Below are positions 1 through 26,055 of a DNA stretch of 30,697 nt, piece by piece. A program made the position numbers and the translations under genes. The stretch is from UHGV virus genome UHGV-1292713. One strand, 5' to 3'. Below the pieces are notes generated by a model that was not told where the DNA came from, did not search any database, and saw only the letters and a list, made by a program, of their open reading frames with translations. The DNA comes from a virus. Each line of letters starts with the position of its first letter. Position 1 is the stretch's first letter.

Positions 1-632
1 GCAACCTGAGTAGCAAAAGCTGTTCATCCCCCATATTTTTGCTGGCGGGTTCTTTTTTCTACTGCCCTCCTCCCCAGGAAAAGCATTTCATTCTTTTCTC
101 ATTAATCGTTACTGGAGAGAAGGCGGGAAAAAGCCAGCTCTTTGGCCCTAAATAACAGCATGGCTTCAGTCCATACAGAATCTGATTTTCCAGCTCACAT
201 AATAACCAGATGATGCAGTTGCAAAATCTGGCAACATCGGATTATTATGCGCCTGTGAAAATTTCTTCACGTTTTATTCCTTGCCGCCCGTGCCTCCCAG
301 CGCGGGCTTTTTTATCCAAAAAATACCCCTCCGGAGAGGGGTATCATACAAGGGGATGACCATGATGCATGGTGCCGGGTGCCTCCCGGTGAGTCCGGCA
401 TCAGCATACGAACCCGCGATTATCCCAGAACTGACTGCTGATTCGCCCCGCCGCTTAGGGGGATTCACCATGCGTTTTTTTATTTACAAACTCTTCGCCA
501 GACAAACAACCATTAACTGGCTGAATTGTGAGGTATTTCAATTTTTAGAAAACTGACCAACCTCCGCTTATACGCCGGGCATGGAGCGGATACAAAAAAG
601 CCCCGCAAAAGCAGATCAGAAGGATTCGTTGT

Positions 633-9751: not shown

Positions 9752-9755
9752 ACAA

Positions 9756-9826
9756 TATGTACCTCCGGTGTACATATTACATGATTGAAATGAACCTTCA
9801 AGATACTTGTACCTTAACGGTACAAG
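9756..9826. promoter_or_regulatory. Divergent cro/cI control region with two TGTAC-N7-GTACA operator palindromes
   Basis: atatgtac-ctccggt-gtacatat (about 9757-9779) and cttgtacc-ttaac-ggtacaag (9806-9826) between the cro-like start (9751) and the cI-like start (9842). Confidence 0.5.
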
Positions 9827-18858: not shown

Positions 18859-18971
18859 TTATTATTGTATGAAATCGTCTCATGTACACGGTCCTTTTTT
18901 CGCCGAAAACTGATATTACTTTAATCAAAAGTTGACGTGCCAGATTCGAAGTAAATTTATAAAATATCAAA

Positions 18972-19277
18972 TCAATATACATTTTGCACCTTCGAGATAG
19001 TAATGACTGTTACTGTAACATGAGTTACAAACAGCTTCATACCCAGAGCTACTGATGTATCAACTCGATTCAACAATACCCGATATTTATTCCATGCCTC
19101 CAGCAACGATCTTTCTTCCTCCGTTGCGATTTCCAGATCTACAGCATCCTGCAGTGGCGCAATATACTCACTGAATTCCTGGATGTAGAACTGTGTAGTG
19201 ACGGTCTTCCAGCCATTCGGCTCCTGCTGTATCGAAGCATACCAGGCTATTTCAATATCGCTATGCTGCGGCAGCAT
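18972..19277 (-). pseudogene. Tail fibre assembly protein remnant (C-terminal fragment, tfaX-like)
   Basis: The 101-aa ORF shares the C-terminal segment [14 protein letters not shown]...[17 protein letters not shown] with the intact tfa at 21790..22365; lacks the N-terminal domain. Confidence 0.65.
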
Positions 19278-19333
19278 TTAACCCCTTGTAATTCATCGCC
19301 ATAATTGATTTAATTCACAAATAAAACTATAAC

Positions 19334-20002
19334 ATGGTGAAATTAATGAAAAAAAACACAGATGATGGGGCTAAAATTTACACACCACTTACCCTAAAGC
19401 TTTATGACTGGTGGGTTTTGGGAGTATCAAATCGGCTTGCATGGGGATGTCCTACAAAGGAACACCTTCTTCCACACTTTCTGGAACATTTAGGTAACAA
19501 CCATCTGGATATTGGTGTTGGAACTGGGTTTTACCTTACTCACGTACCTGAGAGTAGTCTGATATCTTTAATGGATTTGAACGAAGCTAGCCTGAACGCG
19601 GCATCTACAAGGGCTGGGGAATCAAAAATTAAACATAAAATTAACCATGATGTTTTTGAACCTTATCCCGCGGCGTTACATGGTCAATTTGATTCCATTT
19701 CCATGTTTTACCTTCTTCACTGCCTGCCTGGAAATATATCTACAAAAAGCTGTGTAATACGCAATGCGGCGCAGGCCTTAACTGACGATGGAACTCTATA
19801 CGGAGCCACAATTCTTGGCGATGGAGTTGTGCACAATAGCTTCGGTCAAAAACTGATGCGCATTTACAATCAGAAAGGCATCTTTTCAAACACAAAAGAT
19901 TCCGAAGAAGGCTTAACACATATACTCTCAGAGCATTTCGAGAATGTTAAAACCAAGGTTCAAGGTACTGTAGTAATGTTTTCCGCTTCAGGGAAAAAAT
20001 AG
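19334..20002 (+). CDS. Class I SAM-dependent methyltransferase (YbcY-like by recollection)
   Basis: 222-aa ORF with motif I LDIGVGTGFY. Confidence 0.7.
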   Translation: MVKLMKKNTDDGAKIYTPLTLKLYDWWVLGVSNRLAWGCPTKEHLLPHFLEHLGNNHLDIGVGTGFYLTHVPESSLISLMDLNEASLNAASTRAGESKIKHKINHDVFEPYPAALHGQFDSISMFYLLHCLPGNISTKSCVIRNAAQALTDDGTLYGATILGDGVVHNSFGQKLMRIYNQKGIFSNTKDSEEGLTHILSEHFENVKTKVQGTVVMFSASGKK

Positions 20003-20007
20003 CATCC

Positions 20008-20048
20008 AACCGCAGCACGTTCTTGCATAAGGCGTGTCTGCGGTTTTT
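20008..20048 (+). terminator. Rho-independent terminator after the SAM-MTase gene
   Basis: accgcagcacg / cgtgtctgcggt hairpin (one bulge) followed by T5. Confidence 0.55.
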
Positions 20049-20549
20049 CAACTATTCAGATACATCACTCCCATCACATTCATTCCTCCGCATCATAGGC
20101 ATATAGACTATATCACCTTGATATTTTTCTTCTTCAGATAAAAACTGTTATCTATGTATACTTTTAAACCCAATCCGTGTAGAGTCTCTGCATAAGATAG
20201 TTTGCAGTTGCCACTTCAGCTTGCGCCATAAACCGCCTGATTTTTGCTGCCACCTGTTAGCATTCCTGTATACCTGAAACGACAATGTTTATCTACGAAC
20301 TTTAAGAACCCCCAGGATAAAAATTGTCAACTATATCATATATAACACATTACTAATTCGAGGCTATATGAACAGCATACTGATAATCACTTCGCTCCTT
20401 ATCATATTCAGCATTTTTAGTCATGCTCTAATAAAATTAGGGATTGGCATATCCAATAACCCAGACAAAACCGATGTATAAGTCAACATATACTGAATCA
20501 GACATACAATATCGCAATGAAAATCAATAATATTTTAAGGAATATCTTC

Positions 20550-20783
20550 ATGAAATCAAAAGACACCCTAAAGTGGTTCCCTGCGCAGCTTCCTGAAGTA
20601 AGAATTATCCTAGGGGATGCTGTAATGGAAGTAGCAAAACAGGGAAGACCTATCAATACCAGAACATTGCTTGATCACATTGAAGGAAACATAAAGAAAA
20701 AGTCATGGCTGGATAACAAAGAATTATTACAAACAGCGATATCAGTTCTTAAAGACAACAAAAATTTAAATGGTAAAATGTAA
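20550..20783 (+). CDS. Small hypothetical protein in AT-rich gene-poor segment
   Basis: Start assigned to ATG 20550 (MKSKDTLKW...) with AAGGA Shine-Dalgarno 8 nt upstream; 77 aa; no recognisable motif. Confidence 0.3.
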   Translation: MKSKDTLKWFPAQLPEVRIILGDAVMEVAKQGRPINTRTLLDHIEGNIKKKSWLDNKELLQTAISVLKDNKNLNGKM

Positions 20784-21101
20784 TATAATAAACTTACTTT
20801 TTTATCATTTTTCCACTTTAACAACATTTTGCTCCACTTTTCCACGACCAAACAACTTGAAATCTGGTTAAAATAACACGCAACACTATTCTTCTTCCTT
20901 GAGTCCGCCCGGAACTCGAAAAACAAACCGAGTTAAGGCCATTTTTCACAAAATCGATTTTGGATCTCACCAAAATTACGGGGTTGCATACGCATTCGTT
21001 TATTTTCGAACGTGTACATACAAATATGTACAAAAATAATCAAAATTATTTTCTGAGATGCATTATGATATGTACACCAATTTCGTATAGAAGATCTCAC
21101 T

Positions 21102-21692
21102 ATGTCTCGAATTTATGCTTACTGTCGGGTATCAACTCTGGAACAAACAACCAAAAATCAACGTCGGGAAATCGAAAGTGCAGGTTTTAACATCAAATCT
21201 CAGCAAATAATTGAAGAACAAATTAGCGGCTCAGCAGCAACCAGTGAGCGTCCTGGTTTTAACCAGTTGCTTGATCGACTGAAAAGAGGTGATGCATTGA
21301 TTGTCACAAAACTGGATCGCCTCGGTTGTAATCCAATGGATATCAGTAAAACGGTGGAACAACTGACCAAAGCAGGTATCAAAGTGCATTGCTTAGCATT
21401 GGGGGGCGTTGACCTGACCAGTCCACCTGGAAAAATGATGATGCAAGTAATTTCAGCAGTCGCTGAATTTGAGCGAGACCTTTTACTTGAGCGTACTCAT
21501 TCAGGGATATTAAGAGCACGGGGCGCAGGAAAGCGATTTGGTCGCCCACCTGTGTTAAATGATGAACAAATACAGAGGGTACTAGAGCAAATTAAGTCAG
21601 GTATAAATATAAGTGACATTGCCCAAGAATTCAAAACCTCGCGGCAAACCATTTTAAGAGCTAAAGCAAAAAATCAGACACCTGATATATAA
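21102..21692 (+). CDS. Serine recombinase (resolvase/invertase family, Pin/Gin/Hin-like)
   Basis: 196-aa ORF; N-terminal catalytic region YCRVSTLEQ, resolvase core and C-terminal HTH; located beside the tail fibre / tfa genes. Confidence 0.85.
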
Positions 21693-21789
21693 AAATAATC
21701 TCGGTGTGAGATTCCTTACGTTTTCCAAGCCCCCCTTCCTAGCCTTAAATGGAAAGATACTTCTAATTATAGAATTTATATATCTTACC

Positions 21790-22365
21790 CTACGGTAGGG
21801 CTGGCCATTCAATATCCGGTGCAGTTGATGTATCAACACGATTCAGCAACACCCGATACTTTTTCCAGGCTTCCAGCAACAAGGTTTCTTTCTCCGTTGC
21901 GATCTCCAGATCCACAGCATCCTGAAGCGGCGCTATATGCTCACTGGCTACCTGCATCAGGCTGTTTTTTGTTTCTTCCGCCTCCCGGATCCGGAACAGT
22001 TTTTCTGCTTCCGTATCCTTCACCCAGGCTGTGCCGTTCCACTTCTGAAACTCCCCTTCCGGGGATAACCAGGTGACATTTTCCGGTAATGAGCCGAGTT
22101 CAGAAATAAATAACGCGTCGCCGGAAGCCACGTCATAAACCGTTTTACCCCGATGATCTTCAACGAGATGCCACGATGACTCATCACTGTTGAAAACAGC
22201 CACGAAACCAGCCGGAATATCTGGCGGTGCAATATCGGTACTGTTTGCTGGCAGACCTGTATGAGGCGGAATATATGCATCACCTTCACCAATAAATTCA
22301 TTAGTTCCGGACAGCAGATTATAAATTTTTATGGTCCGTGGTTGTTCACTCATTCTGAATGCCAT
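21790..22365 (-). CDS. tfa: Tail fibre assembly protein (Tfa)
   Basis: 191-aa ORF overlapping the stf stop (TAATG); conserved Tfa C-terminus. Confidence 0.8.
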
Positions 22366-25300
22366 TATGCAAGCCTCACAATATAGTTAAATGCGATGTT
22401 TTTGACGGTGTTTTCCGCGTTACCAGCAGCGTTAACGGTGATGGTGTGTCCATGTGAGCCAATCGCAACCGAGTGCGTATGAGCACCAATACCGACAGTA
22501 TGTGCGTGAGCACCTGCAGATGCAGCTGTGCCGCTGACACTATGAGTGTGCGCTCCTGCAGCACTTGTATTCACACTGGCCGCAGACACTACCTTATGTA
22601 CTGACCCATTTTGTGACCACTGGCTGACTGCTGATGCGCCTGTGACACTATGAGTATGGTTTCCGGCACTTGCGGCTGTACCGCTCACACTGTGCGTATG
22701 CGCCCCGATGTTATTCGTGGATTTAGTGCCGTAATCAAACGACGATGTGGTTTTCGTCCCCAAATCCGTACTGGATGCGCTGGCGCTGTGGGTGTGCGAT
22801 TTAATGCCGTCCTGTTCCTGAGACAATACAGCCCGACCACTGGCAGGTTTGCCCTTAATCGTCCAGCCACGCATATCAGGGATCACGCCTGACGGATAAG
22901 CGGCTGCAAGTTTCGGGTATGCAGATTTGTCAAAAGTCTGCCCCTGCATCAGGGCATAACCAGACGGAACGGTATCTGATGGCCACGGGATTGGTGCACC
23001 GACTGGATAAAACTCTGCAGGAGGATGAGCTGAGGTGTAAAGCTGCGCCCACGGCGACCAGTTTGCGTCGGTCGTATCCCGTCGTGAACGAATAAATGCC
23101 GGAGCATGAGCACCGCTTGTACCACTCCAGCCGATGAGTAACTCACCTTCGCCAACGGCTGTCATCCCTTTCAGGTGAATGATATTTCCATACACTGTTG
23201 GATATCCGTTGTTATACACCTCGTATAACTCAAGACCTGTTGCCCCCTGCGTATTGTCTGTCAGCGCGATTACCCGACCTTTTGAAGCCAGATTAACTGA
23301 TGATACTGCTGTTCCACCTGACGGTAACGCCCCGATCTCTGATGCCGTTGGCTTATTTCTGGAGTTATAGTCCCTTCGCCAGCCAGGTGAATAATCTGTT
23401 CCGTGATTAATATAGGTAAGCTGAGCGTTAGTTGTTCCACCACCAGTGGAGGTGGTCGGTGTGGTAATGCGGATCGTCATCGCTGACTTTATCCCCATTA
23501 CTTCAATGACAGCTCCGGCGAGATGAATATTACCGCAGCCAGTATCAGTAATGATTTTATTATTGCCATAAGACCAGGAACCCTTGCACATCCAGTATGG
23601 ATGGTTAAATGCTCCCTGAGAATCCAGCCACTCGATAAACTGTGCAGTCGTCCAGTCTCCTGTTGTTGTGCTTACTGACCCACAGAAGGCGCGGCAGGCA
23701 CCAATATTTTTCGTAAAGGTGTCTTTGCCAGGGATATCCGCACCGTTCTGATCTTTCTGCAGACGTTTCTCAGCATTGTCATTGGCTGCTTTTACTGCCT
23801 TTGGCGTTGCCGCCAGCGTTTCAGACGTGCTGTTGGTCGCGCTGCTGAGCTGAACTATCCCTTTCTGTGCTGTCGTTGCATCCTGTGCGGTGTATTTCCC
23901 GTTAGCCAGGTCATACGCGGCCTTAACTGCTTTTGGCGTTGCCGCCAGTGACTCGGAAGTGCTGTCGATCGCACTGCTGAGCTGTACTATCCCCTTTTTC
24001 GTCGTGCTCGCATCCTCAAGCGCCACGGCGGATGCAATATCCTCTGCCCGTTTTGCTGCTGTCTCAGCGCGCGTTGCCGCGGATTCTGCTGTACTTTTGC
24101 TCTGTGCTGCCGCCGTCGCACTGCCAGCTGCCTCTGTCGCCTTCGTGGATGCCGTCGTGGCGCTGCCCTTCGCTGCTGACGCCTGTCTGGTCGCCTCATC
24201 TTTTGAAGCAGACGCAGATGATGCCGATGACGCCGCCGAACTGGCTGACGATGCGGCTGCCGTTTTTGAGGATTCTGCACTGGTTTCCGACGCTTTCGCA
24301 TTCGTTTCGGATGTCTTCGCTGCGGATGCAGACCTCGCTGCTGCGCTGGCCTGTTCAGCGGCTTCGCCAGCCTTCGTTGTAGCTGTTGAAGCGGACGATG
24401 CAGCGCTTTCTGCCGATTTTCCGGCGGCAGTGGCACTGGCTGAGGCCTGCCCGGCACTTGTTGACGCTGCACTGGCAGACGACGCAGCCGCTGTTTTTGA
24501 GCCTGCTGCTGCGGAGGCACTCTGTTCCGCTGCCGTTTCAGAAGCCTTGGCGTTCGTCTCGGACGTTTTTGCCGCCTTCGCGGAATTTCCTGCCGCCGTA
24601 GCCGAGGAAGCTGCGCTGCTGGCGCTCGAGGCTGCGTTCGTTTCTGATGATTTTGCCGCCTCTTTTGAAGCCGACGCATCCCGTGCTGAAGTGGCTGCTT
24701 CTGACGCTTTCGTGGTCGCGGTGGATGCAGAAGTGGCTGCTGATTGTTGTGACGCTGCCGCATTCGTTTCTGACGTTTTTGCCGTAGCGGCACTGGTGGC
24801 CGCCGCGCTTTTTGAGGACTCTGCAGCGGCAGCACTTTTTGATGCTTCAGTGGCCTTTGCTGATGCCGTTCCTGCGCTGGAAGACGCTGACTGAGCCGAC
24901 GAAGCGGCCTGTCCGGCTGACGTGCTGGCTGCGCGTGCTGAGCCTGCAGCATCAGTCGCATGGGTTGCCGCCTCACGGGCTGATGTGCTGGCATCGCTGG
25001 CTGACTTCTTCGCGGCTGCTGTGTTCTGTGCCACCGCGGACGCGTTACGCGCCACCTCTTCCACCATCAGTTCAAAACGTCTCAGTGCCTCCGGACGGGC
25101 ATCATCCTCCGTCATGGCACCGAGAAAATCATTCAGCGTACCGGGTTGAGAATCTTCATACACGGTGATGGTCCCGGCATGTGACGGCGGGAATCCCTCC
25201 ACCAACAGAATAACGCTGTACTGACCGTACTCAACGTCCATACTGTAACGCCCGGCTTCATCCGGATTTTCTGAGGCCAGCGTGTTCACCACCACCGTGT

Positions 25301-25391
25301 TGCTGTTACGTTTTGCTTTCAGCTGGATTGTGCAGTTCTGTACCGGTTTTCCTGTGCCGTCTTTCAGTACACCTGAAATCTTTACTGCCAT
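22365..25391 (-). CDS. stf: Side tail fibre protein (lambda Stf-like), with Ala/Ser-rich repeat region and C-terminal HTHS repeats
   Basis: Start assigned to ATG 25391 ([12 protein letters not shown]..., as in lambda Stf as I recall it); the ORF track begins 2 codons upstream at a GTG. Long Ala/Ser/Thr-rich low-complexity core and GAHTHSVSG repeats near the C-terminus. Confidence 0.85.
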
Positions 25392-25402
25392 ATTCACCCC
25401 AC

Positions 25403-25428
25403 AAAAAAGCCCGCCTGAACCGGCGGGC
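25403..25428 (-). terminator. Rho-independent terminator between lom and stf
   Basis: gcccgcc-ggttca-ggcgggc hairpin on the minus strand followed by T6 (plus-strand A-run 25403-25408). Confidence 0.6.
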
Positions 25429-25455
25429 TGTCATAACACTGTGTTACCTGGCTAA

Positions 25456-26055
25456 TCAGAATTTATAACCGACACCCACGATGAAACCGTCAGTGCGCCA
25501 GTCACCACTGCCTGAGCCTTCATAAGCAATATCAATGGCCACGGATTCGGTCGGGTTAAACTGCACGCCAGCCCCCCACGCCAGAGACGTGTTGCTGTGG
25601 CGACCGTCATCACTTCCGGTCAGCACATCGTGCTTTTTCCCCTTGTTGTCAGTTACGCGGATATAATCTCCGGAGAAAGTCGAAACACGGCTGTAAGCCA
25701 CACCCGCCATCGCATACGCGCTGAACCATTCATTCACGCGCACAGACGGCCCCGCCATCACGCTGAACCAGCGGTTACGCACGGAATCTTCATGCCAGCG
25801 GGTATCGCTGTAATGAGTCAGCTGGCGATTCTTGTCTTCTGCATAGCTGAATGACGTCACCATCCCCAGCGTGTCCGTAAACTCATAACGGTATTTCACG
25901 TTAATCCCGTTAAGATCATCACTGCCGGGAACGTTGGTCCGGGCATGAAGATACCCCGCGCTCAGCGTGGACTGATGTTCAGACGCCCATGCAGGCGCAC
26001 AGGATACGGCCAGACAAATGGCTGCGGACAAAATGGCGGCATAAAGTTTACGCAT
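25456..26055 (-). CDS. lom: Lom/Ail/PagC-family outer membrane beta-barrel protein
   Basis: 199-aa ORF with signal peptide; C-terminus AYEGSGSGDWRTDGFIVGVGYKF matches lambda Lom as I recall it; sits between J and stf as in lambda. Confidence 0.85.
   Translation of the reverse strand: MRKLYAAILSAAICLAVSCAPAWASEHQSTLSAGYLHARTNVPGSDDLNGINVKYRYEFTDTLGMVTSFSYAEDKNRQLTHYSDTRWHEDSVRNRWFSVMAGPSVRVNEWFSAYAMAGVAYSRVSTFSGDYIRVTDNKGKKHDVLTGSDDGRHSNTSLAWGAGVQFNPTESVAIDIAYEGSGSGDWRTDGFIVGVGYKF

Follow-up and report, generated by a model that had tools for sequence, protein, structure and literature searches.

Known systems and the pin locus

In the transposons Tn3 and γδ, resolvase bound at res represses transcription, and the res subsites double as operator. 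The res of Tn2503 consists of three imperfect dyads located between the divergent genes tnpR and tnpA (PMC3316555). The small serine recombinases Hin, Gin, Cin and Pin of e14 belong to systems with an inverted pair of 26-bp sites and an invertible cassette, and these systems lack res-type three-subsite DNA upstream of the recombinase gene. Here we describe the DNA in front of pin, a recombinase gene at 21102..21692 (+ strand) of UHGV-1292713, a viral DNA stretch of 30,697 nucleotides, which is referred to as the window. The DNA stems from a DLP12-type lambdoid prophage of E. coli, of which it represents the end with the tail and accessory genes, beside ompT. An earlier note on this DNA, made from the sequence alone, had singled out the 1.1-kb segment upstream of pin (20003-21101) and two palindromes in it, a perfect 14-bp palindrome and a TGTACA palindrome close to the gene. 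Comparison with the described systems indicates that the 5' control region of pin is probably a vestigial res of the Tn3 family, which now likely serves as promoter and operator of pin.

With the Hin/Gin/Cin/Pin(e14) systems the locus shares the position of a small serine recombinase gene beside tail-fibre genes and the historical name 'Pin'. The protein identity is only ~35%, however, the inverted pair of 26-bp sites, the invertible cassette and any pix-like sequence are missing, and three-subsite DNA of the res type is present. The likeness to the TnpR-res units of Tn3-family transposons (the Tn2502/Tn2503-like group and its relatives on IncF-type plasmids) extends to both protein and DNA: their recombinases are 64-81% identical to Pin, and three dyads are found directly before the gene in the same order and with the same lengths (26, 32 and ~20 bp) and spacing. 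A -10-like hexamer lies between dyads II and III in both cases, and the leader with its ribosome-binding region is nearly identical. The window unit differs in that it lacks a transposase or plasmid backbone, is located in the terminal part of a lambdoid prophage, with ydfK and tfa as neighbours, and occurs as a single copy, in which subsite I is degenerate in its left half and subsite II in its right half.

In E. coli K-12, pinR of the prophage Rac and pinQ of the prophage Qin are accompanied by ynaM-ynaE and ynfT-ydfK, respectively, in the same gene order as in the window. From the terminator hairpin upstream of these genes to the pin start codon the window is 98-99% identical to both copies, but along this block the identity falls near 21029, from 98-99% between the hairpin and subsite II to ~89% at the nucleotide level in the pin coding sequence (85% at the amino acid level), which puts a mosaic boundary inside the res-like region. 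Where the window has TGTACA, the K-12 copies have TGCACA in subsite II and TGAACA in subsite III, and the TGTACA palindrome is imperfect in K-12. The window copy resides in a DLP12-type prophage, whereas DLP12 of K-12 lacks the block. In a 2025 study, PinQ was reported to invert the P segment of e14 in trans, as a defence against phages (PMC12529663).

The recombinase

Pin is a PinR/PinQ-type, resolvase-like small serine recombinase of 196 amino acids, annotated in RefSeq as 'recombinase family protein', with an N-terminal Resolvase domain (PF00239, E = 1e-37) and a C-terminal HTH_7 domain (PF02796, E = 1.8e-11). The nearest solved structures are those of Gin (~35% identity; PDB 4m6f and 3uj3) and of the γδ and Tn3 resolvases. 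Because Pin is only ~35% identical to the Cin and Gin proteins encoded in phage genomes, as opposed to 80-81% for TnpR proteins encoded beside Tn3-family transposases, it looks like a Tn3-family resolvase by ancestry and not like an invertase of the Hin family.

The genes of these two TnpR proteins (loci L108 and L109 in E. albertii, L110 and L111 in E. coli) are divergent from the gene of a 994-amino acid DDE_Tnp_Tn3 transposase; the 160 bp between the two genes hold a well-preserved res. In E. albertii, the transposase-TnpR unit is found both on a plasmid and on a chromosome. More generally, Pin homologs at 64-81% identity adjoin Tn3-family transposases, the divergent gene pairs being 136-160 bp apart. 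Such transposase-adjacent homologs also occur in Pantoea, in Leptospirillum and in Y. ruckeri, in the last case with arsenic-resistance genes alongside, as in Tn2502/Tn2503, and homologs with 60-80% identity are known from more than 1,500 plasmids. This diversity was drawn from plasmids and from look-ups of exact protein sequences; when the GTDB genomes and IMG/VR were scanned with Pin, nearly all hits were E. coli-type copies, which did not serve for deep footprinting. The pin gene is under purifying selection (dN/dS 0.15-0.33), the catalytic serine motif is kept, and the C-terminal recognition-helix region is close to the family consensus.

A res-homologous region upstream of pin

The ~115 bp before pin (20987-21101) align gaplessly and in register to the three-subsite res of transposons and plasmids. 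The alignment set comprised 12 res regions from plasmids, transposons and phages and, separately, Tn3-family res. An nhmmer profile built from the 12 regions, none of which stems from an E. coli prophage, gives just one significant match to the window (21004-21104, E = 1.6e-13), every other match having an E-value of at least 1. In the relatives, three dyads with the half-site TGT(C/A)CGAAA as building block occupy the ~120 bp ahead of the start codon: a first site of 26 bp is separated by a 14-bp spacer from a second of 32 bp, and a T(A/G)T(A/G)AT hexamer lies between the second and a third of ~20 bp. This layout is that of a classical res and agrees with the published description of the Tn2503 res (PMC3316555).

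The three subsites are preserved to different degrees in the window. The homolog of subsite I, the crossover site (20987-21012, + strand), is degenerate: according to the family half-site matrix, its left half CATACGCAT scores -2.3 bits and its right half CGTTCGAAA (minus strand) 3.9 bits, the family consensus being TGTCCGAAACCGGTCGGTTTCGTACA. It is followed by a 14-bp spacer (21013-21026), which is unconserved across the family, and by the 32-bp homolog of subsite II (21027-21058, + strand), the length and register of which equal those of pAPEC-O1 and of Tn3-family res. In subsite II, the left half TGTACAAAA is good (6.8 bits) and the right half TCTCAGAAA (minus strand) is degenerate (-0.9 bits). 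A -10-like hexamer, TATGAT (21064-21069, + strand), then leads to the homolog of subsite III, ATGTACACCAATTTCGTATA (21070-21089, + strand), which recurs with ~90% identity upstream of Tn3-family tnpR and the right half of which, TATACGAAA (minus strand), reaches 10.1 bits; TATACGAAATT (minus strand, 21079-21089) has the sixth best half-site score of the whole window. Half-sites of most enterobacterial and Tn3 members of the family reach 12-18 bits; in the window, subsite I in its left half and subsite II in its right half do not rise above background. Over the final ~50 bp ahead of the ATG, the window shares ~90% identity with the tnpR leader of the E. albertii/E. coli Tn3-family transposon. 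Neither the res profile nor a search for a family-type subsite I revealed a second res-like site in the window. The neighbours of the res-pin unit are ydfK upstream and tfa and stf downstream, in a prophage on the chromosome, with no association with a transposase or a plasmid.

Among 84 E. coli prophage copies that were compared, 14 carry a diverged allele, termed haplotype B, in which the profile match runs into the left half of subsite I, indicating that a whole res is ancestral here. The version in the window is more eroded than that of haplotype B, and subsites II and III of the K-12-type copies have suffered additional damaging changes. The profile alignment breaks off in the middle of subsite I, which was also considered as a recombination scar; this idea was rejected, since in the haplotype B copies the alignment continues across the left half. 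In two copies the upstream DNA differs on account of insertions, one with its junction at ~20990 (L052) and one at ~21020 (L094), and pin is intact in both; judged from the translations of upstream open reading frames (ORFs), the inserted elements are IS5 and a member of the IS66 family.

A 57-60% identical homolog in Erwinia phage LS-2018a (locus L013, 4880-5000) has a complete and self-consistent three-subsite res with the half-site TGTACTAAA. This res lies after an ORF that, by eye only, has a C-terminus like that of a terminase large subunit. In the literature searched, no paper tying PinR to res sites was found.

The res-like site is a degenerate example of a known site type, and the YnaM/YnfT and YdfK/YnaE genes upstream of it are already known; the practical outcome is modest, namely known genes and a decayed regulatory or recombination site. 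The label 'DNA invertase', which is attached to thousands of pinR/pinQ genes of E. coli prophages, looks wrong in view of the sequences and the fossil res, which point to resolvases of the transposon type. An enzyme of resolvase ancestry is expected to need res-type accessory sites, and the claim that PinQ inverts e14 DNA merits a biochemical check.

The TGTACA palindrome and the putative promoter

The palindrome TGTACAT-N6-ATGTACA, noted previously at 21013-21032, is present there and is better described by 8-bp arms, TGTACATA-CAAA-TATGTACA. Its first 14 bp are the spacer that separates subsites I and II (21013-21026), and with its last 6 bp the left half of subsite II begins; its right arm corresponds to the left half-site of subsite II, and its left arm lies in the spacer. 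The palindrome is perfect in 12 of the 84 E. coli prophage copies; the right arm reads TGCACA in 58 (K-12-type), and the left arm reads TATACA in 14 (haplotype B). A second dyad, AAAATAAT-CAAA-ATTATTTT (21033-21052), which had been missed, abuts the first and lies inside subsite II; it is the interior of this subsite after drift from G/C to A/T. A third TGTACA (21071-21076) forms the left part of subsite III. For palindromes with 8-bp arms and a spacer of 0-10 bp, at least one is found in ~21% of shuffles of the segment and two in 6%, and the segment itself has two. No partner of the TGTACA palindrome was found in the window. Neither of the two palindromes listed in the earlier note is compelling by statistics alone; the TGTACA palindrome is meaningful only via the homology to res.

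A consensus scan places a candidate sigma-70 promoter, TGTACA-16-AATAAT, at 21013..21040 (+ strand; AATAAT at 21035-21040). The same hexamers have been proposed as promoters of pinR and pinQ, and the RpoD holoenzyme bound the spacer in genomic SELEX (systematic evolution of ligands by exponential enrichment) with K-12 DNA (PMC3946193). The assignment of these hexamers is a prediction. TATGAT at 21064-21069 may be an alternative -10 element: almost all family members have T(A/G)T(A/G)AT at this position, and its T, A and T are invariant.

The 14-bp palindrome

The perfect 14-bp palindrome CAAAATCGATTTTG is found at 20949-20962, as had been described. A gap of 25 bp separates it from the res-homologous block further downstream; the transposon and plasmid relatives have nothing that corresponds to it, and it overlaps a second inverted repeat, GATTTTGG-N6-CCAAAATT (20956-20977). 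Its right half, GATTTTGGAT, had been likened to the gix half-site, GGTTTTGGATAA. Three perfect 14-bp palindromes occur in the window, as compared with 2.3 +/- 1.5 in dinucleotide-preserving shuffles, and at least one is present in 10% of the shuffled versions of the 1.1-kb segment. The palindrome does not form a stable RNA hairpin of its own, the fold preferring GAUUUUGG/CCAAAAUU, and its RNA fold does not exceed shuffles in stability.

Nearly all of the 82 E. coli prophage copies that retain the stretch agree in the inner 12 bp. The outer C..G pair (20949/20962) is replaced by A..T, both positions together, in eight haplotype B copies, by A..A in three and by A..G in three (84 copies aligned). 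This conservation carries little weight, since the flanks are almost equally conserved. A deeper comparison is impossible, because the spacer between ydfK and pin is found only in 11 genomes of Escherichia lambdoid phages.

Probable function and alternative explanations

The observations can be integrated in the following manner: pin and the ~115 bp upstream share ancestry with a tnpR-res unit such as those of Tn3-family transposons and large enterobacterial plasmids. In the prophage lineage, subsites I and II have probably drifted, mostly from G/C to A/T, yielding the AT-rich palindromes; still good are subsite III, which is proximal to the promoter, and subsite II in its left half. Pin dimers would still bind subsites II and III, situated next to or across the presumable promoter, and would hence autoregulate pin in the way that resolvases do at res. 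The decayed subsite I would no longer be an efficient crossover site, leaving the prophage without an invertible or resolvable segment of its own, i.e. without a substrate in cis. We infer both autoregulation and the loss of crossover competence from what is known of Tn3 and γδ res and from the low half-site scores. The 14-bp palindrome lies outside the res-pin unit. The earlier suggestion that the segment may contain a recombination site and an operator thus survives in part: a relic of a recombination site and a probable operator are present, but the site is of the resolvase type and located at 20987-21089, not a gix/hix site at 20949-20962.

Several points weigh against this interpretation. 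The low scores in the family matrix are suggestive of lost function but not decisive, because the homolog of the Erwinia phage also scores low although its sites are self-consistent, an example of a lineage that has changed its half-site. The TGTAC core common to the sites of the window could reflect a shifted specificity. There are two rival -10 candidates, AATAAT and TATGAT, both of them predicted. That Pin binds the res-like DNA and regulates pin from there we infer from sequence. The 14-bp palindrome falls outside this interpretation and may be a chance feature. Finally, the reported inversion of e14 DNA by PinQ (PMC12529663) is unexpected for a resolvase-like enzyme.

Among the alternatives, the one that survives best, albeit as an unlikely one, is that the res-like region still works, with Pin recombining it with copies in other prophages or with the res of a resident Tn3-family transposon or plasmid. 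The order and spacing of all three subsites are as expected, subsite III and the right half-site of subsite I match reasonably well, and the recognition-helix region of Pin closely matches the family consensus; moreover, up to five copies of the block are found in one genome, and the Rac and Qin copies of K-12 are mutually inverted on the chromosome. Yet two of the half-sites are at background level, a family-type subsite I is found nowhere in the window, the K-12-type copies have deteriorated further in subsites II and III, and insertions of IS5 and an IS66-family element in this region are tolerated in other copies. Inversions in Rac or Qin were not found across E. coli genomes (PMC12529663). 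Slightly less probable still is a continued use of the worn res in a broader sense, in which Pin acts on the copies of several prophages or, in trans, on the res of Tn3-family transposons or plasmids; the near-consensus recognition helix and the purifying selection on pin are what make it conceivable. If true, Pin acting on the copies of several prophages could give rise to large inversions or deletions or to swaps of prophage modules, and the 'Pin' genes would link prophages to the dynamics of transposons and plasmids, which bears on the 2025 report on PinQ and e14.

There is an equally slim chance that the TGTACA dyad is plain promoter DNA, i.e. a -35 element, or the operator of another regulator of phage or host, its overlap with res being incidental. 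The consensus scan and SELEX both choose TGTACA-16-AATAAT, and binding of H-NS was flagged for the spacer upstream of pin (PMC3946193). An incidental overlap fits poorly with the right arm being positioned exactly at the left half of the family's subsite II, with the left arm falling into a spacer that the family does not conserve, and with the dyad being imperfect in 72 of the 84 E. coli copies. A promoter or operator function would in any case be compatible with a vestigial res, not opposed to it.

A gene for a small regulatory RNA (sRNA) in the non-coding DNA of the segment, as had also been proposed, is very improbable. A match to CssrB, an sRNA of Shigella, in Rfam at 20011-20148 (minus strand) is below threshold (28.8 bits vs a gathering score of 76, E = 0.004) and mostly reflects the palindromic terminator hairpin; a minus-strand promoter-like site is not found upstream of 20148, and the literature searched contained nothing on CssrB. 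Apart from CssrB, Rfam at relaxed and curated thresholds gave only IS009 within tfa genes and a distant STnc100. Inside the segment, no Rfam family matches at its gathering score, the spacer between ydfK and pin (z -0.6 to -1.3) and the ydfK 3' region fold no more stably than shuffles, and no sRNA is annotated by RefSeq in the near-identical Rac and Qin copies of K-12.

Even less credible, to the point of being negligible, is the 14-bp palindrome as a Hin/Gin-type crossover site with an inverted partner in stf/tfa and Fis-assisted tail-fibre switching: despite the proposed likeness to gix, the position of pin next to tfa and stf and the report that PinQ inverts a tail-fibre segment of another prophage (PMC12529663), a search that included stf/tfa found no second copy of the palindrome in the window beyond chance at up to three mismatches and no significant inverted repeat between the segment and stf/tfa (18900-25500), a pix-type site as in e14 is not found in the window, tfa and stf lack alternative inverted C-terminal cassettes, and both the distance of Pin from Gin and Cin and the lack of inversions in Rac or Qin argue in the same direction.

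Prophage setting

Of 5,426 complete E. coli genomes, 4,975 contain a match to the 1.3 kb around the segment, with identities that are mostly 95-99%. In the best-matching genome, one flank contains ompT, an alpha/beta hydrolase gene and a tail-fibre-assembly remnant; the other contains tfa, the side tail fibre gene, lom, J and further lambdoid tail genes. The similarity to Rac and Qin has its left edge at the terminator hairpin (20008-20045). DLP12 of K-12 aligns up to 20043 and again from 21803 onwards, so that it is without 20044-21802 (ynaM-ydfK-pin), and the absent stretch likewise starts at the hairpin.

The block comprising the methyltransferase gene, ynaM, ydfK and pin is flanked by direct repeats, a tfa remnant (18972-19277, minus strand) and the full tfa gene (21790-22365, minus strand), which are 83-90% identical over ~120-145 bp. 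Both tfa copies match the Rfam family IS009, the remnant at 19051-19254 with 108.9 bits, which is below the gathering score, and the full gene at 21824-22022 with 216 bits; IS009 therefore in effect represents a conserved part of the tfa coding sequence.

Genes and signals upstream of the res-like region

The segment is AT-rich, in accordance with its first description (GC content 0.35-0.38 vs ~0.49 for the whole window), but it is not gene-poor, as it contains two annotated genes. It is preceded by a ybcY-like gene for a class I S-adenosylmethionine (SAM)-dependent methyltransferase (19334-20002; RefSeq annotation). Just 3' of the stop codon of this gene lies an intrinsic-terminator hairpin followed by TTTTT (20008..20045, + strand), the RNA fold of which has -20.7 kcal/mol (z = -5.7), with none of 200 shuffles being equally stable.

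The first of the two genes (20368..20481, + strand) belongs to the ynaM/ynfT family and encodes a hydrophobic protein of 37 amino acids (Pfam PF23676, E = 6.5e-28; NCBIfam NF041477); it carries a RefSeq annotation in near-identical genomes, and the YnaM protein was detected in K-12 by epitope tagging (PMC6001520). The second gene (20550..20783, + strand) is the 77-amino acid ORF that had been regarded as marginal; it is a ydfK/ynaE cold-shock gene, annotated in RefSeq as 'cold shock protein YdfK' and matching PHROG 2718 (E = 1.7e-45). YdfK and YnaE were both seen by top-down mass spectrometry after refrigeration (PMC5594050). The first part of the segment consists of the terminator hairpin, a leader and the known small operon of ynaM, encoding a small membrane protein, and ydfK. 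The antisense ORFs of the segment have no Pfam matches. At the ydfK start, the AT-rich sequence GAAAATCAATAATATTTT (~20515-20545) is identical to the K-12 sequence, for which a 17-bit cluster of Fur sites was predicted at ydfK and ynaE (Chen et al. 2007, PMC2189734).

Elsewhere in the window, the gammaproteobacterial sRNA STnc100 is matched above the Rfam gathering score at 314-502 (minus strand, 114.5 bits). Two more perfect dyads with a GTAC core, AATATGTACC-N5-GGTACATATT (9754-9778) and CTTGTACC-N5-GGTACAAG (9806-9826), sit near each other beside overlapping ORFs on opposite strands and could represent a pair of operators; the orientation of their half-sites is opposite to that of the res half-sites.

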